From: a virus
IMG/VR virus record: IMGVR_UViG_3300029928_000020
Span: 1-42,647 of that record
DNA length: 42,647 bases
Reading direction: 5' to 3' (one strand)
In this document: positions 1 to 19,822 of the stretch, in pieces
Layout: every line of letters starts with the position of its first letter
Position numbering within the stretch: position 1 is the first letter of the stretch
The notes under the pieces: model-generated
What the model was told of the DNA's origin: nothing
The model's input: only the letters and a program-made list of their open reading frames with translations
Databases searched by the model: none
Position numbers and translations under genes: made by a program

Positions 1-99
1 TTTGATACTGTTTTCTACCTTGCGGTTGCTGGCCGCGTTGGTGATGATAACCCCTACAAGGGCCATTCCCCCCGTGATGAGTGCTGCCATGATCGTTTC
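1..99. repeat. Terminal overlap copy 1 (identical to 42549..42647)
   Basis: tttgatactgttttctacc...gctgccatgatcgtttc is repeated exactly at the other window end; the junction falls inside a gene. Confidence 0.95.
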
Positions 100-105
100 C
101 ATCAT
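1..105 (-). CDS. 5' end of small membrane-anchored coiled-coil protein gene (same gene as 42393..42647, wraps the circle)
   Basis: Minus strand reads ATG ATG GAA ACG ATC ATG GCA from 105; AAAGGA RBS at 113-118; full product MMETIMAALITGG... is 86 aa. Confidence 0.6.
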   Translation of the reverse strand, partial: MMETIMAALITGGMALVGVIITNAASNRKVENSIK

Positions 106-125
106 TCCGGGTTCCTTTCTTTTGA

Positions 126-2093
126 TTATTGTGGTGCTCTATATCCAACCGCCAGCCAGCCGATAGACGTTGCCGTGGTGCCCGTGCGGGTCACGTAGCA
201 GTCAAAGCCGGTGGCGGTAATGTTGGCCGCCGCGCTGCCGGTCACGACGGTTCCGGGAACGGCGGTTTGCGGCGTGGTGATAACAACGGGCGTGTCGGTG
301 TAGGCCACGGCAAAGGCCACGTCCTTTTTGGTGGGCGTGTTGGCCACGGGCGTGATGCTCTCCCGGCCCCACTGGATCAGCAGGCCGTTAGAAAACAGCA
401 CCCGCCCCGCGTGGTTGGCGTGGGTCACGTCCCCGGAGGTGATAAATTCATCCCCGCCGTTGCCGTGGGTCAGCGTCACGTTTTTATCAATAATCATGTT
501 TTTCGTGCCCGTCAGATAGCGCCAGATGCCGATGCTCCGGGCGCTGTCCCAGCAGCCGATGGACGTAACGCTGTTCCCGTTGCCCCCGTACAGTTTGCAG
601 TTATGGACGTTTGTCGCGTCTTCCGTGGATTGGAAATACATATTCTTTTCATCGTCTGTGCGTTTTGAACCGCCCATGAAGATGTCCTTGTAAATGCTCA
701 TATCCAATCCAATTTCCAATCCGTCAGCGAGTTCAGACACCTTCCCGAACGCAGCGCCCCGGCCCGATGCGTTGAAATCAAGCAGGGTGAACGCGGTCGG
801 TATCTCAACCGTTTTTCTGGTCGTGGTGAAGTAATCTGTCACTGACAGGCGCACGTCATAAGCCGAATCAACGTCCATCACAGGCCCGGTCAAAATGCTG
901 GTCGAAAGCGTGTATCCCGTGCCCGCCTGAATCTGAATCCATTCCGTCGAATCCCTGCCCTTGTATTCAAGCGTGTATCGGCTTTCATTCTTTCCGCCGA
1001 TCGTGGCCACGGAATAGGAAAAGCCTATTTTCCCGTACTGGCCGTCATAGTTTGCCGTGCCGTCCGCCAGCGCACGGACAGGGGAAAGGCCCCTGATCGT
1101 TGGCGCAGAATAGGCGATCACTGTAATCGTCCTTGTTGCGGTTGCCTTTCTGCCCCTGCTGTCCGTAACGGTGATCGTCACCGCTTTTGTACCGCTGGAA
1201 AGCGTCCCCGTTGTAGGCGCTGTGCCTGAATAGCTTTTCCCGTCAACGGTCGTTTTGTATGCCTTGATGGTGGAGCCGAAGGCCCCAACCGCCACAATGC
1301 CAATTTTGACCCTTGATTTGCCCTGCACAAATGCTCCAAACCGTGCCGCAAGGCCGGAAACTGTTTCCGTTATGGAAACGTTGGAAATGGTGGGAACGAC
1401 CGCATCCGGCACTTTGGCCTTGAAGGAAACCGACTTTGTGCCGATCAGTGTGCTTCCGTTATAGGTCTTGCAGGTGATCGTGCAGGTTCCAGACGTGCCG
1501 GACGGAATTTGACTTGCAAGGGAAATCGGCACTTCCCATGTTTTGCTTGTCCCAAGGCCGCTGCCGATTGTCCCGGACGCTTTTCCGAAGGAATACGTAA
1601 GCGTATGGTCAAAGCTGCCGGAAGCCCTTGGCATGTTGATGGTGACGGATGCGCCCATGTTCACGCTGCTTGCCGACAGCGTGGGAACGGTGGCCCTTGG
1701 GATGGTGTTAAACGTGCCGCTTCCGCTGGCCGTGACGTTGCCGTAGTACGTCCCGCCCAGCGTCACGTTGATACCGCAGGTGGCCGCGAAAGCGCAAGTC
1801 TTTGACCCGTTGGATGCATGGGCCACGGTCACGGTTTTGGTAAACAGGGTCTTGGTCTGGTTGCCGTTCAGGGCCGCCGAAAAAGAAAATGTGTATTTTG
1901 TCCCGTTGATGGTCAGGCTGCCCGACTTGCTGGCGCTGCTGTTAATGGTGTAGCTGCTCCCCGTGGATACCAGCTGCACCTTGGCCGTTACGCTGCTGGT
2001 ATTGTTTGCCACGGACTGGCTGCCCACTGTCCACGCGATCTGCAGCCGGTAGCCCGTCCGAATGGCCGCCTGTATGGTTCCTGATGCCGCCAT
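126..2093 (-). CDS. Tail fibre / receptor-binding protein, DUF859-like N-terminus (655 aa)
   Basis: Last large gene of the tail operon; Ser/Thr/Gly-rich beta-type sequence; N-term SGTIQAAIRTGYRLQIAWTVGSQSVANNTSSVTAKV resembles siphovirus DUF859; AAGGGGGA RBS. Confidence 0.75.
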   Translation of the reverse strand: MAASGTIQAAIRTGYRLQIAWTVGSQSVANNTSSVTAKVQLVSTGSSYTINSSASKSGSLTINGTKYTFSFSAALNGNQTKTLFTKTVTVAHASNGSKTCAFAATCGINVTLGGTYYGNVTASGSGTFNTIPRATVPTLSASSVNMGASVTINMPRASGSFDHTLTYSFGKASGTIGSGLGTSKTWEVPISLASQIPSGTSGTCTITCKTYNGSTLIGTKSVSFKAKVPDAVVPTISNVSITETVSGLAARFGAFVQGKSRVKIGIVAVGAFGSTIKAYKTTVDGKSYSGTAPTTGTLSSGTKAVTITVTDSRGRKATATRTITVIAYSAPTIRGLSPVRALADGTANYDGQYGKIGFSYSVATIGGKNESRYTLEYKGRDSTEWIQIQAGTGYTLSTSILTGPVMDVDSAYDVRLSVTDYFTTTRKTVEIPTAFTLLDFNASGRGAAFGKVSELADGLEIGLDMSIYKDIFMGGSKRTDDEKNMYFQSTEDATNVHNCKLYGGNGNSVTSIGCWDSARSIGIWRYLTGTKNMIIDKNVTLTHGNGGDEFITSGDVTHANHAGRVLFSNGLLIQWGRESITPVANTPTKKDVAFAVAYTDTPVVITTPQTAVPGTVVTGSAAANITATGFDCYVTRTGTTATSIGWLAVGYRAPQ

Positions 2094-2133
2094 GTTCTTT
2101 CCCCCTTTCAGGGGTCAGAAGCCTGTCATTCCG

Positions 2134-3738
2134 TCAGATTTTCTTAAAGCTCAAGTTTCCGTTGTCACGGGGCATGAACGCGAAATTCCCCAGCTGCAAA
2201 CTGTGTAATATCTGGGTGTCCGTCACGTACAGCTTGCGATTGCTGAAATAGGCCACTTCGGCCCCGTCCTGCTGAAAGGATATGCGGTCGTTGGCGATCT
2301 GCAATTCCAGCTCGTTCCCGATCTCCCCCAGCAGGATTTTCCCGTCCACAAAGCGGATGTATTTGCGGATTTCCTCAAATTCCGCATCCGCCCCGGCGGC
2401 CACCGCGTCGATGTCGGCCCGGAAGGTGGTGAACTCGATCTCCACGCTGTTTTTGGTCTGCTCGATCTCCGTACTGACGGAAGAGATCAGCGCGTCGGTG
2501 TCGTCTTTCAGGTAGTAGTTTTCCGCCACCGCGCTTTTGATATTGTCCGCCTCCACCTGCAAGGATGCCAGCAAGTTTTGTTCCACGTTGTAGACGGCCG
2601 CGGAGGCCATTTTTTCGACGCTTTCCACGGCGCGGACAATTTCCCTTTGCGCTTGACCAACGCCCAGCAAAGCCCCTCCCAGCCCCAAAAACGCCCCGTT
2701 CAGGGACAGTTTGTTGGCGGCAGGGTCGAGCAGGTTCACGGCAATCTTGCTGACCCGGAAAAGCTGCTCGATTCCGTGGGGCGCACTGGTCACCCGAACT
2801 TGTGTGCCCAGATGGAAGGACGAAAAATCCGCGTCCACCGTGGCCAGATCGGCGGCGGAAAGCTCCACCGTTTCCGGCTGCTTGACAAGCGCGTCCAGTT
2901 GTGCCTTGCCCTTGGCGAAAAGGTTCGTGGCCTCGGTCACGTCGTCAAAAATGATCGTTTTGACAATCGTCCCGAACTGTGCTACCGCGTCCGCGTCCGT
3001 GATGGTGTCGCTGCCATCGTTGACGCTTTTCACCGTCAGGCGGGTGTCTGTGTCCTTCCCTTCCGCGTCCTTGAGCTTTGCCCCAAGGGGAATGACCGCC
3101 GTTGCAATGTCCGCCCCGTTCCGCACCCGTTTCAAGTCCAGCAGGTTTTTCCCGAAGGTGATTACCTGCGGGGAAAGGACGGTGCTGTCCTGCAAGTAGT
3201 CAATATAGTTGAGATTCCCCGCGTGCCGGACGGACACATACCCGCCCATGAGCTTGATGAGCTTGTCTTGCAGCTCCGTCCACGTGTCGGTGTAGTCGAT
3301 GTTCGACCGCACAATGTAGTCGTTGTTGTCCGTCACCGTGATATTGCCCACGGTAAACCACTTGCTTTCCTCCACCTGCTCATTGTGCCGGTCGATCAGC
3401 AGGTTCAGATACCCGGCCACCGTGCCGGTGTAGTCGTAGGGCCGCTGGATGCTGTCCAGCAGAAAGGCAAGCTCCCCTTCGCAGGAGATTTTCTTTTCGT
3501 TGTGCCAGCCCGTTTCCTCATCCAGCACTCGGCCCCGGAACAGCAGATAATCGTCCTGATATACGGTGACGATGCTTTTCAGTTTGTGAATCAGCCCATA
3601 ATAGGGATGGTCGGCGGGCAGGGTAAAGGCGAAAGACCCGGTCTTGTTTTCTTCCAGCTCCACCGTAGGGGAAAGAATTTGCAGGCTTTCCAGCCGGTCG
3701 TTGTACAGGGGCAGGCCGTCGCAGTATACCCGATACAT
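2134..3738 (-). CDS. Tail-associated hub protein (Tal-like, 'prophage tail endopeptidase' N-terminal fold), module B
   Basis: MYRVYCDGLPLYNDRLESLQILSPTVELEENKTGSFAFTL... typical Tal N-terminus; start overlaps upstream stop (TGATG); C-terminal coiled coil. Confidence 0.8.
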   Translation of the reverse strand: MYRVYCDGLPLYNDRLESLQILSPTVELEENKTGSFAFTLPADHPYYGLIHKLKSIVTVYQDDYLLFRGRVLDEETGWHNEKKISCEGELAFLLDSIQRPYDYTGTVAGYLNLLIDRHNEQVEESKWFTVGNITVTDNNDYIVRSNIDYTDTWTELQDKLIKLMGGYVSVRHAGNLNYIDYLQDSTVLSPQVITFGKNLLDLKRVRNGADIATAVIPLGAKLKDAEGKDTDTRLTVKSVNDGSDTITDADAVAQFGTIVKTIIFDDVTEATNLFAKGKAQLDALVKQPETVELSAADLATVDADFSSFHLGTQVRVTSAPHGIEQLFRVSKIAVNLLDPAANKLSLNGAFLGLGGALLGVGQAQREIVRAVESVEKMASAAVYNVEQNLLASLQVEADNIKSAVAENYYLKDDTDALISSVSTEIEQTKNSVEIEFTTFRADIDAVAAGADAEFEEIRKYIRFVDGKILLGEIGNELELQIANDRISFQQDGAEVAYFSNRKLYVTDTQILHSLQLGNFAFMPRDNGNLSFKKI

Positions 3739-4382
3739 CAGAGCGTCGCCTCCTGCCATGTGAAGGTGATGCTTCCCGTCCCGGTCACGGTGACGGTGTT
3801 TGTCCCTTCCGCAAGTTCCAGCTCCGGCAGGGTGTAGCTGCCGCTGCCCAAATCCCACACGTTGTAGCCGTACACAAGGTTCAGGCTGGTTTCCGCCGTG
3901 ATGGTGATCTCCGGCACGGCACGTTTTCTACTGTTTGTCAAGCTGATGGTTTCCGTGCCGTCAACCGCCCTTGTCACAACGGTTTTCGCGGCCTTGTACT
4001 TGTACGGTTCGCATTCGCAGTCTATTTCGATTTTCCCCACGCCTTTTTCGTCCTTGAAGGAGGACACGAAGCAACGCCCCACATAGTAAAAGCCGGGGTC
4101 GCCGTCAAGGGCGATCCGCAGCTTTTTTCCATGCAGGGCGTTTTTGACCATGGAATAATGGGAAAGAAAATCACTCCGGGGAACGATGGTGGAGAACGTG
4201 AACTTGTGGGTCACGTCTCCATACTTCGGCCCGCCGAAGAAGTCCGTCAGATCGATGGAGCCGTCCGCCCCGTCGATCTCGACCACCTTCTTTTTGACGG
4301 ATGGTGCGCCGATCTCTTTTTCGCTCAAAATCAGGTTTAGATCGTCATAAGAGTGCAGTTCCCCGAAAGTGATTCCTATCAT
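3738..4382 (-). CDS. Distal tail protein (Dit, Sipho_tail family), module B
   Basis: MIGITFGELHSYDDLNLILSEKEIGAPSVKKKVVEIDGADGSIDLTDFFGGPKYGD is a typical Dit N-terminus; sits directly upstream of Tal. Confidence 0.8.
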   Translation of the reverse strand: MIGITFGELHSYDDLNLILSEKEIGAPSVKKKVVEIDGADGSIDLTDFFGGPKYGDVTHKFTFSTIVPRSDFLSHYSMVKNALHGKKLRIALDGDPGFYYVGRCFVSSFKDEKGVGKIEIDCECEPYKYKAAKTVVTRAVDGTETISLTNSRKRAVPEITITAETSLNLVYGYNVWDLGSGSYTLPELELAEGTNTVTVTGTGSITFTWQEATL

Positions 4383-4386
4383 GCCA

Positions 4387-4800
4387 TTATGCCACTTCCT
4401 TCCACAGGCTTTCCGTTCCGACTGCGCCCGGCTCCCAGACGTTATTGTCCACAAGGCTTTCCCACGTCTTGCCGTTGTGCGTCACCTTGTCGCCCTTGGC
4501 GTATGGGTTGGTGCTGTCCGGCTGTACCCATGGCAGGATAGCGCCGCTGGGGTCGGTCAGCACCTTGGCCCATAGGCTGGGCGCGTCAGTAGGTGTCCAT
4601 GCCGCCTGTGCTGTGTGGGCCGTCAGGCAGCGGTACAGATTGCCAGCGTACCGCACGCGGTCGCCCACGGCGTAGGCGGCTTCCTCATCCCAATCCGGGA
4701 ACAGTCCCGGCACGGTCAGCGCCTGTTCGTCCGTCAGCATGGCCCCGGCCTTGTCCATCGTCGCCCGGACGATCTTCGCCGCTTCATAAAACTTTCCCAT
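4387..4800 (-). CDS. Tandem CBM5/12-type carbohydrate-binding protein
   Basis: Two copies of the aromatic motif: YAVGDRVRYAGNLYRCLTAHTAQAAWTPTDAPSLWAKV and YAKGDKVTHNGKTWESLVDNNVWEPGAVGTESLWKEV. Confidence 0.7.
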   Translation of the reverse strand: MGKFYEAAKIVRATMDKAGAMLTDEQALTVPGLFPDWDEEAAYAVGDRVRYAGNLYRCLTAHTAQAAWTPTDAPSLWAKVLTDPSGAILPWVQPDSTNPYAKGDKVTHNGKTWESLVDNNVWEPGAVGTESLWKEVA

Positions 4801-5064
4801 TTATTCCGCCTCCTGTTCCGTGTCAACACCCAGCAGCTCAAGCGCCGCCGCCATGTCCTCCGCGTCCTTCTGGGCCTGTTCCAAAGCCGTCAGGACGCGC
4901 TCCCCGGCCCGGTAGAAGTGTTCGCCGTCGTAGGTGTCGCCGATGGCCACGGGGATTTCACCGCAGGGAACCGCCCCCTCAAATTCCGCCGCGTTGGGTG
5001 GGTACAGCACAATCACATTTACCACAACGCCGTCTTCCACCAGCGCATAAAGTAATTCGTTCAT
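4801..5064 (-). CDS. Small conserved tail-module protein (87 aa), unknown function
   Basis: Clean ORF abutting neighbours; acidic C-terminus; position typical of fibre accessory/assembly proteins. Confidence 0.6.
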   Translation of the reverse strand: MNELLYALVEDGVVVNVIVLYPPNAAEFEGAVPCGEIPVAIGDTYDGEHFYRAGERVLTALEQAQKDAEDMAAALELLGVDTEQEAE

Positions 5065-5076
5065 GCTTCTTCCTCC

Positions 5077-6066
5077 TTACCGATGATTCCGCACCACAAC
5101 GATGCCTGAGCCGCCGTTGTGGCTGTTTTCGTTAGAGCCGCCCGCACCGCCGCCGGTGTTGGCCGTGCCGTTCTGCTGGGCGTTACCGCCACCTCCAGCG
5201 CCGCCTGCATCATTGGCATTGTTCACGATGGCGCAGGCACCGCCGCCGGAATACAGGGTGCCGGTGGATTCGCCAAATTCGCGGGTCGTTGTTCCCTGCC
5301 CAGTTCCCGGCGTTGCGCCGGAACCACCTCCATTGCCGCCGTCGCTTCCGCCGGAACCGGCAAAGTAGGTCGCGCCGCCGCTGCCACCGTTTCCGCCGTT
5401 TGAATTGTTGCTTCGTCCCTGACCGCCGCTGACCGACTGACCAAAGCCAGAACTGCTGCCGCCGTCTGCGCCGGCCTGCCCGCCAGCACCCACAACGATT
5501 TGATAGTTCGTGCCCTCCACAACGGTAATGCTCTTTTTGGTTTTGGTATATCCGCCGCCCCCGCCGCCGGACGCGCCGCGAGTGCCTTCCTCATAGGTTC
5601 CGCCGCCACCGCCCACAAGGAACAGGTCGATCACGCCATTCCACTTGCCCAAATTGGTAAACTTCAGCGTGCCGCTGCTCTTGATTTTGATGCGCCAGTT
5701 GCCGCTTCCGTCGTCGATCTTCTCATGACTGCCGCTGTAGGTGTAGGCCATGTTGGGGTTCTTCACCGTCAGCGTGGCCACCCGGCTGGTCACCTCCCCG
5801 GCTTTGTTCGTAACCACGCAGTAGATGCTGTGGCTGCCGACGCTCGCGCTGCTCCAACTGACGGTGGCGTTCGTGGCTCCCGTCCACTTCGCCCCGTCCC
5901 GGTACCACTGGTACGTGTATTCCGCCGGCACGCCCGCCGTGGCAATTTCCACCCGGAAGGTGGCCTGTTCTCCCTGCCAGTTGGTCACATTGGCCGGGTA
6001 GCTGGCGTTCAATACAGGCAGCTTCTTGGCCTCGCCCGCGCGGCGCACGATATAACAGTCGCCCAT
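5077..6066 (-). CDS. Tail fibre protein with Ig-like N-terminal domain and glycine-rich C-terminal domain
   Basis: YTYQWYRDG...SHSIYCVVTNKAGEVTSRVATLTV (Ig-like) followed by GGGGGTY, GGGGGGY, GGNGGSGG, GGAGGGGN runs. Confidence 0.7.
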   Translation of the reverse strand: MGDCYIVRRAGEAKKLPVLNASYPANVTNWQGEQATFRVEIATAGVPAEYTYQWYRDGAKWTGATNATVSWSSASVGSHSIYCVVTNKAGEVTSRVATLTVKNPNMAYTYSGSHEKIDDGSGNWRIKIKSSGTLKFTNLGKWNGVIDLFLVGGGGGTYEEGTRGASGGGGGGYTKTKKSITVVEGTNYQIVVGAGGQAGADGGSSSGFGQSVSGGQGRSNNSNGGNGGSGGATYFAGSGGSDGGNGGGSGATPGTGQGTTTREFGESTGTLYSGGGACAIVNNANDAGGAGGGGNAQQNGTANTGGGAGGSNENSHNGGSGIVVVRNHR

Positions 6067-6986
6067 TATCTCACCACCTTAATTTTGATCGGGATGTCGA
6101 TCTCCGGCTTAGAGCCGAAAACCACTGTGACCTTGTTTGCCCCAGCCGTGGCCTTGAACAGGCTCACCCACACGTCGGACAGCGCCTGCATATCCGCAAG
6201 GGTGCTGACGGCGGCCATGTTGATGTCCACAAACGGCGTATCGCTGCCCAAAAGCCCGGTGGCGGTCACGTCCTGCGTATAGGGGGAGCTGCTCGACCAG
6301 CCGGAGGCCGACAACGTGCCGGTAAATTCCAGCAGGTTCACCTTTTCGACGGTGTCATACACCGTCTGGATGTTGGCTTCCAGCTCCGCGATCAGGGCCG
6401 CTGTCTGGCTCTGGACGCTGGTCAGGGTGGCACTCACTTGCGTCTGTGCGTCGCTCAAAGCGCTACTGAACTGGCTCTGTATCACGCTGGTGTCGATGCC
6501 CGTCACGCCGTCCCGCATCAGGCCGCAGACGCTCTCGTTCAGCCGCTCGTCGGTGATGTTGCCCGCGTTGATGGCCGTCGCGCCAGCCGCCACGGTGATC
6601 TGCGCCAAGCTGATTTCATAGGCCACGCTGTCCCGCTGCAGGGCGGGAGCCGCCGGAGAAGCCGCCGCCGTACCCTTTTTGATGTAGGCGTAGCATTTGT
6701 TGTTCAAGATTTCCAGCCGGATGCACACCCGGTCGATGCGCTTGTACTGCGCATCCGCCAGCGTCACCGTCAGGGCCTTGCCCGCCGTGTTGGCGTACAC
6801 GCACCCGGCATAGTCGTTATAGTGGAGCCAAGCAACGCCCGCCCCCAGCGTGACGTTCATAGTTCCGCCCGCCGTCACGGCCAGATGGCCGTTGGTGTAC
6901 ACGCCGCTGGTGCGGGTGGCAAACCATAGCTGCGCGTCCTCCGCTGTATAGGCGGTATTTTCCAAGGGAAAGCTTTTCTCAGCCAT
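6066..6986 (-). CDS. Tail fibre / baseplate-associated structural protein (306 aa)
   Basis: Follows the Gp37-like gene; central coiled coil (SQFSSALSDAQTQVSATLTSVQSQTAALIAELEANIQ); start and stop overlap neighbours. Confidence 0.6.
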   Translation of the reverse strand: MAEKSFPLENTAYTAEDAQLWFATRTSGVYTNGHLAVTAGGTMNVTLGAGVAWLHYNDYAGCVYANTAGKALTVTLADAQYKRIDRVCIRLEILNNKCYAYIKKGTAAASPAAPALQRDSVAYEISLAQITVAAGATAINAGNITDERLNESVCGLMRDGVTGIDTSVIQSQFSSALSDAQTQVSATLTSVQSQTAALIAELEANIQTVYDTVEKVNLLEFTGTLSASGWSSSSPYTQDVTATGLLGSDTPFVDINMAAVSTLADMQALSDVWVSLFKATAGANKVTVVFGSKPEIDIPIKIKVVR

Positions 6987-8025
6987 TTTTCACGATCTCC
7001 CCTTTCACGTAATTCAAGGGCTTGTCGCCGATGATGATTTTCACCGTCTCAAGCCCCTGCCGGTTCTCGTATTGGTATTCCGTTATCCTCGCGTCGAAGC
7101 GCAGCCCGTAGCGCTGGCTTTTACACGTCACCTTGTCCCCAAGGTCGCAGCGGTGGCCGAACTCGGTCGCACTCAGCTCGCATTCAAAACACAGGGCGTT
7201 TTTATGCTCCTGCAGGGCCTTGATGCCGATCTGCTTCTGCCGTTTCTGCCAGTCTGGGTTGGTCTCGTCCTCGCCCTGATCCTCGCCCGTCACCAGCAGC
7301 TCCCGCCGCTGGGCCGCTCCCGCTTCGATGGCCTCCGGGGACACATACTCGTAATACACGGTGCGCGGGTCGTTGTTGGCCGCGCCGGTCACCAGCGCCA
7401 CGTTCTTGTATACGTCGTCGTCCTCGCTGACGGTCAGTTGTTTCAAATTCCCGTATTCTTGGGAGAACACCACGCCGCCCACGCCGTCCTTGTACGTGCG
7501 GTCGGCCCCTTCGTAGACCTCGATCACGTTTGTTTTGTTGGTGCGGTCGAAGTTCGCCCGGATGCCGTATTCCGTCTGGCCCAGCACTTCTTCTGCCGCT
7601 TCCAGCAGGTCTTCACCCTCGATCTCGCATTCATACTCCGCCGTCAGCCCCTTCACGGCGGCGGTGGTGACGTTGAGCCAGCGCAGCTCGGCGTTTATCA
7701 TGCCATACACGGCGCTTTCCACGTTGGTCACGCTGTACGCATGGGCAATGGTTCGCCATGTCAGCAGGTGCAAGGCCGTGTACCCGCCCGCCGTGATGGT
7801 GTTCTGTTCGGTGTCCCGTTTGACGCTGATGATCAGCATGGCGGCGGGGCGGTCGGCCCGGTATAGATACCAGCCGCGCCGAAGCAGCCCGGCGTATTTG
7901 TCGGTGTCGTAGACCTCAAGGGTAAACCCGCCCTTGTCCGTGTACTGTTCCGTCCATGTCAGGTCGATCCAGTTCTCGATCTGGCCCCGGTACACAAAGT
8001 CCGAATCAAACACATGCAGGATCAT
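6979..8025 (-). CDS. Siphovirus ReqiPepy6 Gp37-like tail hub protein, module A
   Basis: MILHVFDSDFVYRGQIENWIDLTWTEQYTDKGGFTLEVYDTD... typical of this family; directly downstream of a Dit gene. Confidence 0.7.
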   Translation of the reverse strand: MILHVFDSDFVYRGQIENWIDLTWTEQYTDKGGFTLEVYDTDKYAGLLRRGWYLYRADRPAAMLIISVKRDTEQNTITAGGYTALHLLTWRTIAHAYSVTNVESAVYGMINAELRWLNVTTAAVKGLTAEYECEIEGEDLLEAAEEVLGQTEYGIRANFDRTNKTNVIEVYEGADRTYKDGVGGVVFSQEYGNLKQLTVSEDDDVYKNVALVTGAANNDPRTVYYEYVSPEAIEAGAAQRRELLVTGEDQGEDETNPDWQKRQKQIGIKALQEHKNALCFECELSATEFGHRCDLGDKVTCKSQRYGLRFDARITEYQYENRQGLETVKIIIGDKPLNYVKGEIVKNG

Positions 8026-8028
8026 CCG

Positions 8029-8880
8029 CTACACCCCCGCATACGCCGGGCGGAAGCTGATGGAGGCCCGCAGCGTGTCGCCGCCCTGATCCGCGTCGGT
8101 CTTGATATGATTCTGGCCGGGCTGCAGCTTAAAGGGCACGGACGCGATATCCAGATACTGGAACCCGTCTGTCTCGGTGCCGTCCGTCGCCGTCAGGGTC
8201 ACGGACAGCTCCTCCCCTTCGTTGCTGATGGTCACCTGCTCCCCGGCGGCCATCGTCCGCATCACCCGCACCATTTCGCCGGTCACGATGTTCTTCACAT
8301 AGGGGTTCTTCGCTTCCAGCAGCGCGAGGAAATTCACCGTCCAATACGTCGGCGCTTCGCCCTCGTTGTTCACGGTCACATAGCCCACCTGCGCCAATTT
8401 GGACATGTAGAAGGGGTTTGGGTCGGAAATATTCCACGGAAACTGGAACTGCGGCTCATAGCCCACCAGCACTTTGTTTTTCCGCACTGCGTCCCGCCAA
8501 TAGGGGAAGGGAGCATACAAGGAAAAGCTGAACTTCGCCCCGTAGGGCTGGCGGTCGATATCCGGCGAGGACTTGACATACACTTCCAGCTCATACGCGT
8601 CATTATAGATCAGGCGGCCCTTCGCCAGCGGGGCCAGTACATGGTTCAGCTGCTCCCGCAGCGCCGCAGACTCCCCGTTGATCGAGCCCTTGAGGGTGAT
8701 CGTCTTCGGGCTGACGTTCTGGTGCTGCAGCACCTCGCCGATCTCCCGGTTGGATTTCGTGGTTTGAAACTCCACGTTCTGCGCCCCGTAGGACGTGACC
8801 TTTTCAATATACGCGCCGGGCGAACCGCTGTTAAACGTCACGCTGCCGATATCGTTTTCATACCGTACCTTGGGAATCAT
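8029..8880 (-). CDS. Distal tail protein (Dit, phage tail family), module A
   Basis: MIPKVRYENDIGSVTFNSGSPGAYIEKVTSYG...; GGAGGTGG RBS; ATGA overlap with the stop of the upstream TMP-like gene. Confidence 0.75.
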   Translation of the reverse strand: MIPKVRYENDIGSVTFNSGSPGAYIEKVTSYGAQNVEFQTTKSNREIGEVLQHQNVSPKTITLKGSINGESAALREQLNHVLAPLAKGRLIYNDAYELEVYVKSSPDIDRQPYGAKFSFSLYAPFPYWRDAVRKNKVLVGYEPQFQFPWNISDPNPFYMSKLAQVGYVTVNNEGEAPTYWTVNFLALLEAKNPYVKNIVTGEMVRVMRTMAAGEQVTISNEGEELSVTLTATDGTETDGFQYLDIASVPFKLQPGQNHIKTDADQGGDTLRASISFRPAYAGV

Positions 8881-10499
8881 CCGCGCCACCTCCAATCATC
8901 CACGGCATTGCGCACGGCCTGCGCCACCTCATAGGGGCTGTTGGTATTTCCGCTGATGTTGATGGTCAGATTCATGGGCTGCTCCGTCTGCACGGGCATG
9001 GCCCCGATTCCGGCCAGCGACGGCAATCTTTCCCCGCGCCAGATGGCCGCCTGCGAGGCCGTCAGGACGGCTTCGTTTTCGTGCAGCCGAGCTTTAAAGC
9101 CGTCATACGGAACGCGGCGCAGGCCGCTGGCCTGTTGCTGATAACCGTCCATTTCAGGAGTGCTGAAAGATTTGCCGCCGCCGCCGTGTGATTCGCCAGA
9201 ATCGCTATTGTGTACATTGCTTGTAACTTCAACGCCGATGCCGAGCGAACGTTTTGTGCTGTCCCACCAATTTTTAATACTATTCCATAGGCTTTCCAAC
9301 TTTGCTTTAACGGCGGTAAAATTTTCAACCGCTATTTGGATAGCAAAATTGAACGCATCCACAAGGCCTGTTTTCAGGGTTTCCCAGCCCTCCTGAATGC
9401 TTGTTGCTATTGTCGGCCAATCAGGAAGATCAATGCCAAGCGTTGCCTTAAAGTTTTGCTGTATCCACGGCCAGACGGTGTTTTGCCAGCCGTCGGAAAT
9501 GGCGTTCCCCGCAAGCGAAAAAACGCTCTGGAACACTTTGCCGGTATTCACCAGCAGATTCCCGGTAGCTTTCGCAACGTTTTTGGTGGTATTCCATGCC
9601 GATTCTCCAAGCCCCTTTACCAGCGAATCAATATCGGCGTTCCCGTCTGCCAGACCTGTCAGAAGGTTGTCCCACGCGGCTTTTGTAGCGTTCCAACTGC
9701 CGGAAATGGTTTCGGTGGCTTCCTTCTCGGTCGCCCCGGTGATTTCCATTTCCTCTTGGATTACATGGATTGCTTCGATGATGTCGTCAAGATTTTTGAT
9801 ATTGTACTTTTGGCCGGAAAGCTTCTGCGCGTCCCTGAGCAGCCGTTTCATTTCTGATTGAGTGCCGCCGTAACCCAGCTTCAAGTTGTCCAGCATGGTG
9901 TAGTTCTGCTTGGCGAAGCCTTGATAGGCGTTTTGGATACTAGACATATCAGTACCCATTTTGTTTGCGTTATCCGACATATCCCGGATTGCCGTATCTG
10001 TCAGCCTTGCCGCCGCTTCCGTATCTCCGCCAAGGCTGGAAATCAGCGAGGCCGCAAAGCTTGTCGCCGTGTCCATGTATTCGGTCGCCGATAGGCCGGT
10101 CGTTTTGTAGGCTTCTTTAGCGTTCGAAAAAACGGTGTTTTGGGCATTCATAAGCTGGTTATATTTGCCCTCAACTTCTTCCACGCTTTTCCCGGCATCG
10201 TCCGCGTACTGCTGCAACGACTTACCGTTAGCGCCGAACAACGTTTCCACGCCGCCGACCATCTGTTCATAGTCCGCATATGCGCTGATGGATGCTTTGG
10301 CCAGATCGCCGATGGCCTTTGTGATGCCAGCGGCTACAAGCGCACCTTTGATTTTCCCAAAGACTTTTACCGCAGACCCACCCATGTTTTCAAGTTTGCC
10401 TTTTAATCCACCGGCATGTTCGCTAACGTCGTCGATCTTTTCATTGGCCCCCGATGCGTCGATAGCGATACGCCCGAAAAGGGTAAAAATGTCTGCCAT
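8877..10499 (-). CDS. Tape measure protein 2 (540 aa)
   Basis: N-term MADIFTLFGRIAIDASGANEKIDDVSEHAGG parallels TMP1; long helical Ala/Lys/Asn-rich body; followed by Dit. Confidence 0.7.
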   Translation of the reverse strand: MADIFTLFGRIAIDASGANEKIDDVSEHAGGLKGKLENMGGSAVKVFGKIKGALVAAGITKAIGDLAKASISAYADYEQMVGGVETLFGANGKSLQQYADDAGKSVEEVEGKYNQLMNAQNTVFSNAKEAYKTTGLSATEYMDTATSFAASLISSLGGDTEAAARLTDTAIRDMSDNANKMGTDMSSIQNAYQGFAKQNYTMLDNLKLGYGGTQSEMKRLLRDAQKLSGQKYNIKNLDDIIEAIHVIQEEMEITGATEKEATETISGSWNATKAAWDNLLTGLADGNADIDSLVKGLGESAWNTTKNVAKATGNLLVNTGKVFQSVFSLAGNAISDGWQNTVWPWIQQNFKATLGIDLPDWPTIATSIQEGWETLKTGLVDAFNFAIQIAVENFTAVKAKLESLWNSIKNWWDSTKRSLGIGVEVTSNVHNSDSGESHGGGGKSFSTPEMDGYQQQASGLRRVPYDGFKARLHENEAVLTASQAAIWRGERLPSLAGIGAMPVQTEQPMNLTINISGNTNSPYEVAQAVRNAVDDWRWRG

Positions 10500-10548
10500 T
10501 CCGTATCACCTTCTTTATGTAGTGCTGCGCTTTATACCGTTTTATCCA

Positions 10549-10577
10549 TTGTTTTCCGCTTATCACCGCCCTATAAT
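10549..10577 (+). promoter_or_regulatory. Candidate sigma70-type promoter of the TPM moron
   Basis: TTGTTT (10549-54), 17-nt spacer, TATAAT (10572-77); AAAGGAGG RBS precedes ATG 10600. Confidence 0.5.
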
Positions 10578-10599
10578 TTCCAAAAAGGAGGTCGTTCCC

Positions 10600-11088
10600 A
10601 TGAAAAAAATTGTTGCCGCCGTCTTGTTTTTCTTGATTGTTTTTTCGTCTGCGGTTGCCGAACCGTGGCGTGTTTTTGATAACGCCGGGATTTTTTCGGA
10701 AAGCGAAATCGAAGAACTGGAAAACGAAATTTCGGCTTTTCAAAGAGAAACCAACGTTGATTTTGTAGTGCTTACCACCGATGATTATTTAGGTTCCGGC
10801 AATCAGCAAGTTATTGCAAACGCCTTTTTCGATTCTGGAAATTTCGGGTTCGGACGGTTGGCAAGCGGATTGATCTACTACATCGACATGAATCAATGCT
10901 GGCATTGTGTTTCGACCCTTGGTGAAATGAAAACCGTTTTCGAAGACTATGTAAGCCCTTCGTTAGACGCGTGTGCCGATTTCATGATGAGCAAAGATTA
11001 TAAAGGCTCCGTTTTGGAAATGATCGATTGGGCGAAAAAGGCAGTTGAGGAAGCTGACAGCAACGCGCAAACACCAACCAAACCATAA
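10600..11088 (+). CDS. Secreted TPM-domain protein (TLP18.3/Psb32/MOLO-1 phosphatase-like fold), moron
   Basis: Signal peptide MKKIVAAVLFFLIVFSSAVA; RVFDNAGIFSESEIEELENEISAFQRETNVDFVVLTTDDY matches the TPM pattern; opposite strand to the tail operon; AT-richer. Confidence 0.7.
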   Translation: MKKIVAAVLFFLIVFSSAVAEPWRVFDNAGIFSESEIEELENEISAFQRETNVDFVVLTTDDYLGSGNQQVIANAFFDSGNFGFGRLASGLIYYIDMNQCWHCVSTLGEMKTVFEDYVSPSLDACADFMMSKDYKGSVLEMIDWAKKAVEEADSNAQTPTKP

Positions 11089-11116
11089 AAGGGAACGGCC
11101 CGCGCCGCTCCCTTTT
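11087..11116. terminator. Bidirectional intrinsic terminator between TMP1 and the TPM moron
   Basis: AAAA-gggaacggc-ccgc-gccgctccc-TTTT; 8/9 bp stem flanked by A and T runs. Confidence 0.6.
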
Positions 11117-11118
11117 CC

Positions 11119-12855
11119 TTATCTCACATTCCCGCGCCCGGCGTTCCTGTACCGCACATTCAGCCCTTCGTCAATGGCGGGGGTCAGCTCGCCCACCAGA
11201 ACCCCGGTGTCCAGCAGTACGTCCTTCGGCACGATCCGCCGGAGGAAGTCCATCATCAGCCGGTTTTGCTCAATGATGATCCGCCCCACGGCCTCGTTTT
11301 CCGCCCGTACCGCCTGCCGGACGTAGCCTTGCAGCACGTCAATGGGCGCTATGGCTTCCGCGCCCGCCTCCCCGACCCCCTGCAAGCCTGCCCGGCTGTC
11401 AAGGATGGTGGGCCGGTCGAATACCGCTCCTGCCGCGTTCCATTTCACGTTAAAGTTCGGCAGCTTTCCCTTTCCCGCTATGCCGAAAGGCGCTTTGCCT
11501 CCGCTGACGGAGATTTTCGGGATTTTCAAATTGCTGAACAGCTTCCCAACCTTTAGCGGGAACAGCCCCTTGATCTTGTCCACGGCCTTTTTGACCGATT
11601 CCCGCGCCGCGTCGATCTTGTCCGCCGCCGCCTTTCGGATGCCCTCGAAGGTGTCACGCACCGTCTTTACCGCGCCTTTCAGGCCGTTAAAAGCCTTTTT
11701 GATGCCGGAAACGGCCTTGGAGCAGGCGGATTTCAGTTTGTCCCATAGAGAAATCCAGAACGCCCGGAAATCCTTGTTGTTGTTCCACAGGTACACAAAC
11801 GCCGCTACAAGGCCCGCGATCAGGCTTACCACAAGGCCGATGGGATTTGCCCGGAGCGCCGCGTTGAACAAAAGAATGGCCGCTCTGGTGGCTTTCACGG
11901 CCTTGGTGGCGGCTTTCATAATCGCGCCCCATTTCAGAACCAGAAGGAACGAACCCACGGTCACGGTTGCGGCAATGATGGCCGCTTTCCATGCGTCCAC
12001 GGTGTTCTTGTTGTCCTTCATCCATTTCCGCGCATCCTTAACCTTTTGGATAAGGCTTTCCAGCTTCGGAACCGCCGCTTCCACCATTTTGGAAATGGCG
12101 TTTTTGACGGCGGTCAGGATGGGTTCGCCCACTCGACCCAGCTCCGCCATAGCGCCGTTCAAGCGCTCCTGCGCCCGGTTGGCCGCCATCACGTCCGCGT
12201 TGGTTTCCTTATACTGGTCGGAGGCGGCCTTGTACGTGCCGTTCAGGTTCTCCATGATGAGCTTTTGCCGCTCCTGTTCCCCGGAGCATTTCGCCAGCTT
12301 GTCGTTGAATTCGTCCTCGGAGATGCCCGCCCAGTTCAGCGCATCCGCCAGCGGGCCGGTCACTTCGCCCACCTTGGCGGTCTCGTTGGCCGCTTCGGTC
12401 AGGCCCTCAATGGGCAGCGAATCGCCGAAGGTGGCGAAAACGCCGGTGCAGATGTCCGTCCATGTCTGCAAATCCTTTTCGTTGTCCGTCATGACCGCCA
12501 GATGGTTTGCCGCTTCTACGGATACGTCCGTTTCGCCCAAAACCGCCTGCAAGTCCTGATAGGTTTTCTTTGCAGCATCGGAGGAATGGCCGTTGGTCAC
12601 AAAGGCCGTGTCCAGCTTGCCCATTTCGGTGCGGTATTCCCGGCTCCCCTCAATGGCCGCTATCCACGCCGTGCCCAGCGTCACCCCGGCCCCTACCACG
12701 GCTTTTCCTACCGTCAGGGCCGCAGCGCCGATTTTCTTGAAAGATAGTTCCGATTTACTGCCCGTATTTTCCGCTTTGCCTGCTGTTTCGTCCAGCGCCT
12801 TGTTGGCCTGATCGTTTTCAACCGCAATCGTCCCCAGCAGCCGGAACAGTTCCAT
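11119..12855 (-). CDS. Tape measure protein 1 (578 aa)
   Basis: N-term MELFRLLGTIAVENDQANKALDETAGK; central hydrophobic segments (AAIIAATVTVGSFLLVLKW, IGLVVSLIAGLVAAFVYLW); directly downstream of the G/GT chaperones. Confidence 0.85.
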   Translation of the reverse strand: MELFRLLGTIAVENDQANKALDETAGKAENTGSKSELSFKKIGAAALTVGKAVVGAGVTLGTAWIAAIEGSREYRTEMGKLDTAFVTNGHSSDAAKKTYQDLQAVLGETDVSVEAANHLAVMTDNEKDLQTWTDICTGVFATFGDSLPIEGLTEAANETAKVGEVTGPLADALNWAGISEDEFNDKLAKCSGEQERQKLIMENLNGTYKAASDQYKETNADVMAANRAQERLNGAMAELGRVGEPILTAVKNAISKMVEAAVPKLESLIQKVKDARKWMKDNKNTVDAWKAAIIAATVTVGSFLLVLKWGAIMKAATKAVKATRAAILLFNAALRANPIGLVVSLIAGLVAAFVYLWNNNKDFRAFWISLWDKLKSACSKAVSGIKKAFNGLKGAVKTVRDTFEGIRKAAADKIDAARESVKKAVDKIKGLFPLKVGKLFSNLKIPKISVSGGKAPFGIAGKGKLPNFNVKWNAAGAVFDRPTILDSRAGLQGVGEAGAEAIAPIDVLQGYVRQAVRAENEAVGRIIIEQNRLMMDFLRRIVPKDVLLDTGVLVGELTPAIDEGLNVRYRNAGRGNVR

Positions 12856-13563
12856 TCGCGTTCACCTCACCACACGCCGGAAGGAAAGCGTTCAGGATGC
12901 TTTCCGATTCCGCTACAATGCTTTGTACTTCTTCCCGCGTTGGTGCTGCGTGTTTTTCCGGGTCGATGCTGTCAACGAAATCGGGGTAGGACTTGTCAAA
13001 CACACGATGCAGCCAGACTTCCCAAATAACCTTTTCCCGCTGCTCGTCGTTGTACCGCTTGACCAGCCCTTCCACAAACTCGCACAGCTTCCCGGCCCGG
13101 ATCATTCCGTCCATCAGGGGATAGGGGTTGGCATACCGCCGAAAAACGAGGTCGAAAAAATCCTGCTCGTTTAGCTGCGCAATTTGAATACCTGCGTAAA
13201 AAAATCAGCGAACTCTTCTTTCTGGATGGTTTCCATCACCATCCCGGCGAAGGTGCCCATGGGCAGTTCGGCGATCTCCTTTTCCTTCATGCCGGACAAG
13301 CTGGCAAGAAACTGATAGAGTTCCGTCCGGCACTCCGGCAGGCGTTCCACCACCAGCGCGGCCACGTCCACCATGATCTGCATCCCCACGGCGGCGGCCA
13401 AGTCGCTTTCCTGCTCCTTGCCAGCGTCCGCAATGGCCTTGCGCACGGTTTCGCCGTCGAAGCACTTTTTCAGTTCGCTTAAGCCGATCTTGTTGATAAT
13501 GCGCAGCACCATAAACAGGTCGTCCGCTTTCAGCGCCCGCAAAGTATAGGTCTTTTCTTCCAT
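12818..13563 (-). CDS. Tail assembly chaperone GT fusion product (via -1 frameshift at 13198-13204)
   Basis: The -1 frame from GAT TTT TTT reads ...YAGIQIAQLNEQDFFDLVFRRYANPYPLMDGMIRAGKL with no stop, into ORF 12818..13114. Confidence 0.7.
13171..13563 (-). CDS. Tail assembly chaperone G (130 aa)
   Basis: Position between tail tube and TMP; acidic helical protein; slippery site near its 3' end. Confidence 0.8.
   Translation of the reverse strand: MEEKTYTLRALKADDLFMVLRIINKIGLSELKKCFDGETVRKAIADAGKEQESDLAAAVGMQIMVDVAALVVERLPECRTELYQFLASLSGMKEKEIAELPMGTFAGMVMETIQKEEFADFFTQVFKLRS
13198..13204 (-). promoter_or_regulatory. Programmed -1 ribosomal frameshift slippery heptamer (T_TTT_TTT)
   Basis: Seven A on the plus strand; zero frame GA[T TTT TTT] ACG; the -1 frame is open into the downstream ORF. 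Confidence 0.7.
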
Positions 13564-13621: not shown

Positions 13622-14215
13622 TTATGCCGCCGGGGTGGGGTAGTAGATATGCCACGGCAGGGTGTCCGCTTCGGCGGTCAGAGGCGCGTAGCACTCAAAG
13701 GTCAGCGTAGGCGTGGCGGCCTCCTTGTTCTGCGTTTCCACCTCCCAGCCGGAGGTGCACAGCGCATAGTCAAACACAACAATGATGGGCGTACCGTCCA
13801 GACGCTTGCCCACAAAGCCAAGGTTCTGCACGTAGTCGCCCGTCTTGATCATCCCACGGGATTTCAGTTCGGTGTAGCCGGTAGCGGTGGAGGACGCGGC
13901 CTCGTCCGCAATGACGGTCTTTTTGATCAGGTCGGGGGTCTGCTCCACGGGCTTGATCTCCATGGTGGCGGTCTCGCCCACCTTCACGGCCAAGTCCTTG
14001 ATCTTGACCAGTGCGCCGTCCACCGGCACGTCGTACAGTTCCTTAGTGATGCTCACCTTGCTGCCGCCATTGGTAGCGCACAGCAGGGATTCCGCAAAGT
14101 TCCACGCGCTGTCCTTAAATTCAAGGCCCGCGTGTACCGTGCCAGCGCCGAAAAGGACGTTGCCCGGAGTGCCCTCCGTAATGCCGGAGGACTTGAACTC
14201 ATCACCCAATGCCAT
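13622..14215 (-). CDS. Major tail (tube) protein
   Basis: 197 aa, upstream of G/GT and TMP; beta-rich sequence typical of TP901-1/phi13-type major tail proteins. Confidence 0.8.
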   Translation of the reverse strand: MALGDEFKSSGITEGTPGNVLFGAGTVHAGLEFKDSAWNFAESLLCATNGGSKVSITKELYDVPVDGALVKIKDLAVKVGETATMEIKPVEQTPDLIKKTVIADEAASSTATGYTELKSRGMIKTGDYVQNLGFVGKRLDGTPIIVVFDYALCTSGWEVETQNKEAATPTLTFECYAPLTAEADTLPWHIYYPTPAA

Positions 14216-18582: not shown

Positions 18583-18877
18583 CGGGATCAGCTCCCTCAT
18601 CGTCGGAAGGTTTCAATTCTGCAATATGTTTACCAGTATTATGAATGTAGACGGCCAGTGCGGCGGAGCAGATGCCCGCCATGACGTTTTCAGGGGTCAC
18701 GGCCCAGCCGTTGAGCCACAGCACCCCCACCAGCGCCACGGGCAGCAGCACGAGGGGAATGTACTTGTTGTTGAAGCCCTCCCACACGTTTTTCAGCAGC
18801 CAGCCCACCAGAAAGCAAACGGCGGCAACGGGGATCACCGCGTATTTGCTGATGATTTCCATGATGTTGATTTCCAT
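18569..18877 (-). CDS. Holin (three predicted TM segments, charged C-terminus)
   Basis: YAVIPVAAVCFLVGWLL, YIPLVLLPVALVGVLWL, VMAGICSAALAVYI, then KPSDDEGADPDGNG; overlaps the endolysin start. Confidence 0.8.
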   Translation of the reverse strand: MEINIMEIISKYAVIPVAAVCFLVGWLLKNVWEGFNNKYIPLVLLPVALVGVLWLNGWAVTPENVMAGICSAALAVYIHNTGKHIAELKPSDDEGADPDGNG

Positions 18878-18993: not shown

Positions 18994-19036
18994 ATTTTTA
19001 ATTACTGCTGCAATGGTATCATCCCCTTTCACATGA

Positions 19037-19234: not shown

Positions 19235-19278
19235 GTTTTCCCCTTTCCAAGGCATGAAAAAAGCGCCATGCGCGGCGC

Positions 19279-19307
19279 TTGTACGTCCTTCCCGTTCGGT
19301 CTATAAT
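19279..19307 (+). promoter_or_regulatory. Candidate promoter of the plus-strand moron
   Basis: TTGTAC (19279-84), 17 nt, TATAAT (19302-07); GGGAGGTGA RBS before ATG 19332. Confidence 0.55.
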
Positions 19308-19331
19308 GCTGCCGGGAAGGGAGGTGAGAAT

Positions 19332-19793: not shown

Positions 19794-19822
19794 GTAATTC
19801 AAAAGCGTCACTTCTGGATTTG

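Follow-up and report, generated by a model that had tools for sequence, protein, structure and literature searches.

Two nested tape-measure, Dit, hub and fibre sets in the tail operon of a clade of gut siphoviruses

Introduction

The late operon of the virus record IMGVR_UViG_3300029928_000020 (IMG/VR; positions 1 to 42,647, one strand, 42,647 nt; this whole stretch is referred to below as the window) encodes two complete siphovirus tail-tip sets, i.e. two tape-measure proteins (TMPs), two distal tail proteins (Dits) and two baseplate hubs, each set with its own fibres and one set lying inside the other. Siphovirus TMPs are long, largely helical proteins which are encoded directly after the G/GT chaperones, and their length sets the length of the tail; the TMP C-terminus is located within the Dit and hub, the latter being a trimer by which the tube is closed below the Dit ring. 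The two sets had been called in an earlier note on this DNA, and its gene calls and coordinates all hold. Here, we describe both sets, their distribution among related phages (cited by locus number, e.g. L001, where they have to be told apart) and what the layout may mean for tail assembly.

Results and discussion

Gene content of the tail operon

The window carries an exact 99-bp terminal overlap (1-99 = 42549-42647) and therefore represents a circularly closed, complete genome of ~42.5 kb (42,548 bp). The minus strand encodes all siphovirus late genes. In transcription order, the operon starts with the genes for the major capsid protein, four head-tail connectors, the major tail protein and G/T, continues with TMP1, a hairpin, an opposite-strand moron, TMP2, DitA, HubA, p306 and a glycine-rich/Ig protein, and ends with p87, a CBM5/12 protein, DitB, TalB and a 655-aa fibre (aa, amino acids). 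From TMP2 to the last fibre the genes are tightly spaced, with overlaps or gaps of a few bases: the CBM5/12 stop and the DitB start are 4 nt apart, and DitB and TalB overlap by 1 nt. The outer set (B) comprises:

11119..12855, minus strand: TMP1, outer tape measure, 578 aa, starting with MELFRLLGTIAVEND
3738..4382, minus strand: DitB, outer distal tail protein, 214 aa (phrog_33 'Dit', 2.9e-22)
2134..3738, minus strand: TalB, outer hub/Tal, 534 aa (Prophage_tail, 1.9e-12; phrog_3558, 3e-123)
126..2093, minus strand: Fib655, outer fibre and last gene of the late operon, 655 aa (DUF859, 4.5e-57; Gp53-like_C, 1.6e-6)

The inner set (A) lies between TMP1 and DitB and comprises:

8877..10499, minus strand: TMP2, inner tape measure, 540 aa, starting with MADIFTLFGRIAIDASGAN
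8029..8880, minus strand: DitA, inner distal tail protein, 283 aa (SPP1_Dit, 1.6e-11; phrog_33, 2e-20)
6979..8025, minus strand: HubA, inner baseplate hub, 348 aa (full-length Sipho_Gp37, 1e-36)
6066..6986, minus strand: p306 (phrog_9534 and phrog_1220, 'head/virion structural protein'), always found after a Gp37-type hub
5077..6066, minus strand: tail protein with Ig-like and glycine-rich parts, 329 aa (Gly_rich_2, 1e-14; weak Ig/PKD matches)
4801..5064, minus strand: p87, small inner-cassette protein (phrog_14370, 3e-7), adjoining the CBM gene in relatives
4387..4800, minus strand: CBM5/12 protein with two modules, last gene of the inner cassette, 137 aa (CBM_5_12, 6e-25)

Two tape measures, two Dits and two hubs

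No Pfam or NCBIfam tape-measure model matched TMP1 or TMP2 above cutoff. TMP1 matches several tape-measure PHROGs (e.g. phrog_991, 6e-31, and phrog_58, 6e-29), its residues 333-385 resemble the 80alpha TMP gp57 in a PDB sequence search (6v8i, E 2e-4), and its gene directly follows the canonical G/GT pair and overlaps the end of T, the position by which a tape measure is recognized. Across 60 distinct relatives TMP1 is 56-98 % identical and near-constant in length. TMP2 matches phrog_6900 (3e-71) and phrog_991 (6e-56), and its residues 348-491 resemble the diffocin TMP CD1366 (8v3w, E 4e-6). In four close relatives that carry set A only (L002-L004 and L006), TMP2 is the sole TMP and directly follows G/T. 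Hydrophobic segments, present at residues 288-359 of TMP1 and absent from TMP2, proved uninformative as a tape-measure criterion, since even the sole TMPs of L002 and L003 lack them.

Compared with L005-L011, TMP2 is a mosaic, its N-terminal part being 60-69 % identical and its last ~90 aa 78-94 %. Within its gene, a stretch (window 9826-9983) matches tape-measure genes of Microbacterium phages and of Streptococcus phage Javan330 at the nucleotide level (79-93 % identical over 71-158 nt); it spans the conserved ..QNAYQGFAKQNYTMLDNLKLGYGGT.. motif, and such conservation of DNA across bacterial phyla is striking.

DitA, whose gene stands immediately downstream of TMP2 and upstream of HubA, also matches Sipho_tail just under the cutoff (7e-5). 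DitB gave no Pfam match and is assigned to its family through phrog_33 alone. Its gene stands upstream of TalB but 6.7 kb from TMP1, although its homologues in single-set phages abut the TMP gene.

Neither HubA nor TalB gave a match in the PDB sequence search, and NCBIfam returned nothing for the hubs, so that structure prediction was required after the former. The AlphaFold model of HubA is of high confidence (predicted local distance difference test, pLDDT, 90.2; predicted template modelling score, pTM, 0.85), and Foldseek places it with known hubs at E-values of 1e-20 to 1e-14, i.e. those of diffocin (8v3w_H, 1e-20), Listeria gp18 (3gs9), 80alpha Tal (6v8i_AE), monocin (9j1k_L) and Mu gp44. 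HubA, as modelled, is thus a gp27-like hub. The model of TalB is of low confidence (pLDDT 62; residues 349-457 unmodelled); the same hub structures are found with this weaker model at 8e-14 to 1e-9, and the N-terminal part of TalB is likewise a gp27-like hub as far as the model goes.

The C-terminal domain of TalB (aa 397-532; window 2134-2548) probably docks the fibre. In the Candidatus Heliusvirales phages, the same domain is a separate 181-aa protein encoded before a DUF859 fibre (L151, 17281-17826; L152, 17294-17848), which looks like a domain fusion or fission marking a fibre-docking adaptor, to judge from the sequences. An apparent double Tal in these phages was rejected, as the second TalB match is merely this adaptor domain in the form of a small protein. 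In a number of TalB homologues (L076-L083, L107 and L142) an insertion of ~1.5 kb lies between the hub (aa 1-350) and the C-terminal adaptor (aa 378-534), and the TalB of L234 (13916-16207; 763 aa) has an extra collagen-like region.

As for the fibres, Fib655 accompanies DitB/TalB in all relatives and varies in its C-terminal part, as does the glycine-rich/Ig protein of set A. The p306 protein is probably the fibre or receptor-binding protein of set A; in L234 and L235, the gene after the hub encodes a homologue of 284 aa.

The pairwise comparisons proposed in the earlier note show that sets A and B are not recent duplicates of each other. TMP1 and TMP2 can be aligned over the first ~110 aa alone (30 % identity), DitA and DitB as well as HubA and TalB show no significant BLASTP similarity, and the two hub families reach an E-value of 0.01 with hhalign. 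A recent tandem duplication is therefore ruled out. The same applies to a tape measure split into two genes, as TMP1 and TMP2 both begin with the N-terminal motif of TMPs and are complete at their C-terminal tails; the two proteins align in parallel, not end to end, with the long TMP PHROGs (phrog_58 positions 289-674 and 290-565), and either type serves as the sole TMP of other phages.

The nested layout in related phages

IMG/VR was searched with TMP2, TalB and TMP1 as seeds, yielding 149 loci onto which all tail proteins of the window were mapped; loci sharing at least 1.6 kb of identical sequence were merged into conservative clusters. Wherever both flanks were covered, all fetched relatives with a TMP1 of at least 55 % or a TalB of at least 53 % identity showed the nested layout, i.e. 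G/GT, TMP1, a second TMP, a variable Dit/hub/fibre set and the conserved DitB-TalB-fibre genes. This amounts to 24 of 24 clusters, with TMP1 adjoining DitB in none. In the 39 distinct loci that cover both TMP1 (56-98 % identity) and DitB/TalB (55-97 %), the two are separated by 4.2-8.8 kb (median 6.6 kb); DitB taken alone is 55-96 % identical across the clade. An open reading frame (ORF) of 467-928 aa which starts with the TMP N-terminal motif (M[ED]LF.L.G.IA.) follows TMP1 in 57 of the 60 distinct TMP1 loci with downstream sequence, a count made by inspection because the automatic motif rule (43 of 60) was too strict; it is followed in turn by ORFs of Dit and hub size and by fibres. The inner sets belong to at least three unrelated types, i.e. 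A/Gp37-like sets, B-like paralogues (~35 % identity) and a third type, C, as well as to some rarer ones.

The GenBank record MT835521, from a Mexican faecal virome, is ~91 % identical over the region and has the identical gene order, and L234, a contig of a metagenome-assembled genome (MAG) from NCBI whose HubA is 63 % identical, shares the entire layout including the opposite-strand TPM gene. Since the layout recurs in MT835521, in dozens of IMG/VR contigs and in NCBI MAGs from different samples, it is not an accident of assembly, and the divergence of the head proteins of nested relatives to 35-70 % identity indicates that it is old and has been maintained. More than 4,000 proteins of the TalB family are found in public data, and those closer than ~53 % identity mark the nested clade. 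About a hundred relatives share with this phage the presence of both sets in intact form.

The earlier note had read the region of about 4387-11118 as a foreign insertion. It does behave as a cassette placed between TMP1 and its cognate DitB/TalB; it is not sporadic, being the normal layout of a large clade of gut phages, in which the outer set (TMP1, DitB, TalB and fibre) is conserved and the inner one is subject to turnover. Likewise, the question of whether relatives carry one set only can be answered: nearly all of them carry both, exceptions including four A-only contigs, and single sets are found in distant phages.

One further locus departs from this picture. L070 (IMGVR_UViG_3300045988_072179, contig range 30442-52043) has a single TMP of 663 aa, unlike TMP1, with two Dit/hub/fibre sets, the first consisting of a Dit, a Tal-like protein and a fibre and the second of DitB, TalB and a DUF859 fibre 63-69 % identical to those of the window. 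L070 shares 95-96 % identity with the nested phage L065 starting 100 nt before DitB, is unrelated to it upstream of that point, and lies on an 89-kb contig (L070/L146) resembling two related genomes joined together. Possible readings of L070 are thus a chimeric assembly, a recombination event of recent date that left the B set orphaned, or a hint that a B set can be mounted without a TMP of its own.

Tape-measure tails and tip types go together

The C-terminal tails of the TMPs link each of them to one type of tip. For the second TMPs of the 39 nested loci, the last ~30 residues were assigned to classes by eye, as an automatic tail-motif rule proved too restrictive to place 18 of the 39; the counts are thus approximate. 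Tails of the form '..LDSG.LVGQLAP..G..RGN' precede DitB/TalB-like paralogues (~21 loci), those of the form '..(DDW|EQA)RW..' precede DitA/Gp37-type genes (~10 loci) and those of the form '..NNREF[AG]R[LM]V..' precede the Dit and hub of type C (~6 loci). TMP2 ends in ..AVDDWRWRG, going with DitA/HubA. The tail of TMP1, LLDTGVLVGELTPAIDEGL..GRGNVR, is of the B class, as in single-set phages where the TMP abuts DitB. Since each TMP tail matches its own Dit/hub type, TMP1 pairs with DitB/TalB across the 6.7-kb insert.

The same pairing is seen in uninterrupted form in distant relatives (TalB 32-48 % identical) with a contiguous B module, in which a TMP whose C-terminal ~200 aa resemble TMP1 369-575, tail motif included, is followed directly by DitB-like, TalB-like and DUF859-fibre genes; these are phages and prophages of Erysipelotrichaceae, Enterococcus, Streptococcus, Eubacteriales KG125 and Lachnospiraceae as well as Heliusvirales.

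Genomes with different inner cassettes are similar through TMP1 and part of the second TMP, lose their similarity within the C-terminal part of the latter and regain it 13-100 nt before the DitB start, which makes this a fixed right junction (L117 versus L121, L110 versus L122 and L121 versus L143). The left edge is variable and lies within the second TMP, the N-terminal two thirds of which can be common to different tip types. From where similarity is lost and returns, the unit exchanged is the TMP C-terminus together with Dit, hub and fibres, and the junctions behave like break points of homologous recombination in these alignments. Inner cassettes of unrelated types, bounded by sharp junctions, are found next to outer sets with 94-97 % identity to each other, so that the outer proteins appear to need no adaptation to the inner ones.

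Both sets are maintained

Both sets are intact and, by their substitution patterns, under purifying selection. The ratios of non-synonymous to synonymous substitution (dN/dS) against close relatives are 0.10 for TMP1, 0.10-0.16 for DitB and 0.09-0.12 for TalB in the outer set, and 0.12-0.21 for DitA and 0.02-0.17 for HubA in the inner one. The idea of a decaying module, put forward in the earlier note, is contradicted by intact ORFs and values of 0.02-0.21 in both sets.

Each type is also found alone. B-type modules occur by themselves in L159-L233, L084, L207, L212 and the Heliusvirales phages, and an A-type module is found in the unrelated phage L235, where a 523-aa TMP, SPP1_Dit, Sipho_Gp37 and further genes are followed by a CHAP lysin and a holin. 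Among close relatives of the window, L002, L003, L004 and L006 have G/T followed by TMP2, with TMP1 and the DitB/TalB/fibre genes missing. Their similarity to the window breaks at ~12862-12972 and ~10610 and, on the other side, at 4375, just past the CBM5/12 stop (4387-4389). L006 retains a deletion scar, its T ORF running on in frame into the final 25 codons of TMP1. At least this lineage therefore goes back to a nested genome and has jointly lost TMP1 and the B set, two parts 6.7 kb apart. The four A-only contigs fall into three conservative clusters. No B-only derivative was found within the nested clade in the cluster survey.

Shared tail genes and other features of the genome

The genes serving both sets, and the lysogeny module, are the following:

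13622-14215, minus strand: major tail protein, 197 aa, single copy
13171..13563, minus strand: tail assembly chaperone G, 130 aa, single copy, common to both sets and conserved in relatives
12818..13114, minus strand: T part of the G/GT frameshift chaperone, overlapping the TMP1 start by 38 nt
39488-40933: large serine recombinase of the integrase type, 481 aa, with helix-turn-helix regulators alongside on the plus strand (lysogeny module)

The G gene is located between the major tail protein gene and TMP1, and a TTTTTTA slip site lies in the 31-nt overlap of the T frame with the 3' end of G. The large serine recombinase gene indicates that the phage is temperate. A Phage_holin_5_2 holin and an endolysin-like gene with a C-terminal PG_binding_1 domain (17764-18877, minus strand) are found among the head genes, between MuF (20321-21838) and the capsid gene (15982-16986), adjoining a stretch of low GC content (0.46-0.47; 19000-21000). 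In the A-only relatives the holin is in its usual location after the tail genes.

A proposed model with two tail types

Taken individually, either set would count as a common siphovirus TMP-Dit-Tal module. The unusual feature is the doubling and nesting of the entire module, tape measure and hub included, and its maintenance in a clade. The outer module is split, with TMP1 upstream and DitB-TalB-Fib655 downstream, and the inner module is placed at the old TMP|Dit junction. We regard the nested architecture, the cognate pairing of TMPs with tips and the maintenance of both sets as very probable.

As a mechanism, we propose that the C-terminus of each TMP docks into the cognate Dit ring and hub trimer with the aid of the one G/GT pair, so that two different initiator complexes would result. 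The single major tail protein could then polymerize on either complex, and the finished tail would join the common head. The segment shared by the N-termini of the TMPs would fit contacts with shared proximal parts, i.e. one G/GT and one tube protein. A burst would thus consist of two virion types differing just at the tip, one with the conserved B tip and one with a fast-changing inner tip, and the outcome would be a standing dual receptor or host range. Tail lengths would differ between the virion types wherever the TMP lengths differ. Tails extend by 0.15 nm per TMP residue, from which ~87 nm would be predicted for TMP1, ~81 nm for TMP2 and up to ~139 nm for the second TMP of L098. Recombination arms on either side of the exchangeable cassette may be provided by DitB and by the N-terminal segment common to the second TMPs, upstream of which lies TMP1.

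That two independent tail-initiator complexes give rise to two virion types from one genome is, in our view, the most likely mechanism, with an even chance of being correct on the present gene-level evidence. The wider claim that the clade routinely makes two virions, with orthogonal initiators competing for tube protein and heads and host range being chosen at tail initiation (a strategy not known to have been described for a phage), would have slightly less than an even chance of holding. Several points weigh against a two-virion model. All relatives are metagenome assemblies or MAGs, none being a cultured isolate, and the host is a guess from MAG labels (Clostridia, Acutalibacteraceae), some of the MAGs being mis-binned (Prevotella, Alphaproteobacteria). 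We know of no phage making two tail types from one genome. No switch that would balance two assemblies was found, i.e. no invertible segment and no significant repeats. The A-only contigs probably represent one lineage, so that TMP1 and the B set may have been lost jointly just once. Further points of this kind concern the alternative of a composite tip, which is considered first.

Alternative explanations

The main rival is one composite tip, in which every virion would carry both sets in a single adhesion device, e.g. as stacked Dit/hub rings or with B mounted on the A tip, and both TMPs inside the tube. Nearly all relatives keep both sets, as would be expected for the parts of one machine, and the earlier note had itself named such uniformity among close relatives, combined with the presence of all the proteins in every virion, as a finding that would tell against alternative tips. 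Moreover, L070 combines two Dit/hub/fibre sets with one TMP, and the second TMP is within about ±25 % of the length of TMP1 in most genomes, which would be compatible with one tube for both. There are also precedents for two Dit-like rings in one tip: phage T5 has p140 and pb9, and the lactococcal phage p2 has two Dit hexamers. According to the study of Nocturne116 (PMC13595954), phages encoding several distal tail proteins usually form two separate rings, Nocturne116 itself having a mixed DTP1/DTP2 ring. On the other hand, every inner cassette brings a full TMP with a matching tail, which would be superfluous for an accessory part of a baseplate. There is no sign of co-adaptation, with unrelated inner cassettes beside near-identical outer sets, and the A-only derivatives lost TMP1 and the B set jointly, leaving a normal-looking single-set layout. 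In addition, HubA and TalB both appear from their models to be full gp27-like, tube-capping proteins, and to our knowledge no solved siphovirus tip has two gp27-like hubs. Finally, the second TMP ranges from 467 to 928 aa against a TMP1 near 578 aa (in L098, 578 and 928 aa), which is a poor fit with both TMPs side by side in one tube. We therefore consider a composite tip unlikely.

A second alternative is regulated, exclusive use, in which both sets would be functional and one of them used per infection or condition, e.g. through termination or read-through at the hairpin after TMP1 or through a host-dependent factor, giving uniform bursts. It draws on two features between the tape measures:

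11087..11116, no strand assigned: hairpin (stem of 13 bp) at the point where TMP1 and the moron gene converge
10600..11088, plus strand: opposite-strand moron, encoding a 162-aa TPM-domain protein (Pfam TPM_phosphatase, 8e-12), in a low-GC region

The hairpin has a folding energy of -23.4 kcal/mol and a z-score of -4.0, none of 200 shuffled sequences folding as well, and looks like a bidirectional terminator; a consensus terminator scan gave 8 sites versus 5.7 in shuffled sequence, i.e. no excess over chance. The N-terminus of the moron product is hydrophobic and resembles a signal peptide. This strong hairpin and the antisense moron would part TMP1 from the downstream genes, and in about one-third of the 60 relatives a spacer of 435-714 nt is found between TMP1 and the second TMP. 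In about two-thirds, however, the gap is 25-62 nt, leaving no room for a regulatory element. The hairpin and moron noticed in the earlier note are thus present in the window but confined to a subset of relatives: L234 carries a weak TPM match in the equivalent slot, the moron is absent or different in most relatives, and MT835521 has no match to window 10615-11079, so that slot content varies even between close relatives. The slot itself (window 10500-11118) recurs in L001, L005-L011, L018, L044, L076-L079, L098, L099, L104, L134, L142, L155 and L234.

Since the Dit, hub and fibre genes of set B lie downstream of set A in the same packed operon, transcription cannot separate A from B. An invertible or site-specific switch was also rejected: no inverted repeat longer than 21 nt (81 % complementary), no significant repeats and no invertible segment were found in 1-13200, and the only serine recombinase is the 481-aa large integrase-type enzyme. 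Regulated exclusive use is therefore improbable.

One of the sets could also be a passenger, i.e. selfish, recently acquired or decaying, and contribute nothing to the virion. The inner cassette moves between genomes, GC content at 9-11 kb (0.48-0.52) is unlike that of the rest of the window, and L070 carries a B set without TMP1. Against this, the genes of the two sets are intact and their dN/dS stays well below 1, the clade has kept the double state while its head proteins diverged to 35-70 % identity, and single-set derivatives amount to just one A-only lineage. An integrated satellite or mobile element can be dismissed in the same way, as all genes of 4387-11118 encode tail proteins or the TPM moron, and the cassette has no integrase, transposase or flanking repeats. 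A passenger is thus highly improbable.

The chances are very small that one set builds headless, tailocin-like particles of the F-type (non-contractile) and the other the virion tail: HubA and TalB resemble monocin and diffocin hubs as much as phage hubs, and the C-terminal part of TMP2 resembles the diffocin TMP, but these matches reflect the common hub and TMP folds, and A-type and B-type tips are each the sole tip of complete phages. An assembly artefact, in which two strains differing in their tail modules were merged by the assembler, is scarcely conceivable, for although all data are short-read metagenome assemblies and the L070/L146 contig looks like two joined genomes, the nested order recurs with clean junctions in independent collections (MT835521, IMG/VR and NCBI MAGs), different inner cassettes have homologous junction sequences, the window closes to a circle of normal size and the clade holds no un-nested B-only variant to act as a source.

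Comparison with known systems

Each set alone has the composition and order, the predicted gp27/Tal hub fold, the Dit and TMP families and the slip site of the canonical module of SPP1, TP901-1, 80alpha and lambda. In contrast to the textbook case of one TMP, one Dit and one hub, two sets are found here, which share chaperones, tube and head, the TMP and the Dit of one set enclosing the other set. The closest known form of a contiguous B-type module with a DUF859 fibre is provided by Candidatus Heliusvirales (PV036438 and PV036434) and the Streptococcus prophages Javan261 and Javan422, with identities to the window of 31-33 % for the TMP C-terminus (TMP1 aa 369-565), 26 % for Dit and 36-39 % for Tal; these phages have a single set, with no second TMP, Dit or hub, and the TalB C-terminal domain as a protein of its own.

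T5, p2 and Nocturne116 (PMC13595954) are alike in having more than one Dit-fold ring or protein per tip. They differ in that a single TMP and hub are combined with an extra Dit without its own hub and fibres, whereas here the whole TMP-Dit-hub-fibre unit is doubled, each unit occurring alone elsewhere.

With regard to function, the likely outcome of one genome serving several receptors or hosts, by way of a variable element exchanged as a cassette, resembles the Gin/G segment of Mu, Cin S/S' of P1, the diversity-generating retroelement (DGR) of BPP-1 and dual receptor-binding proteins (RBPs), such as those on one baseplate in lactococcal 936-group phages (PMC6315561). However, these systems vary the distal fibre or RBP on a common hub, while here the tape measure, Dit ring and hub are doubled; the choice would fall at tail initiation rather than at the fibre. 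The locus showed neither an invertase site nor an inverted repeat, and no repeated template region either. A keyword search of the open-access literature returned no description of two TMP/Dit/hub sets, which is not proof of absence but agrees with the remark in the earlier note that this is not a standard architecture.

Significance

The siphovirus rule of one tape measure, one Dit ring and one hub, with host range varying at the fibres, is broken by this locus and its clade. If two tail types are indeed made, this would be a novel means by which phages spread their chances over several hosts or receptors, and a natural test of the specificity between TMP and tip, of one chaperone pair and tube protein serving two rulers and of cassette exchange in the gut virome. 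If the tip were instead a composite with two hubs and two TMPs, it would be an architecture without structural precedent, so that either outcome would be informative. As the clade is abundant, test material should be obtainable. For the engineering of host range, the layout suggests that whole tip cassettes may be swapped along with the matching TMP C-terminus.

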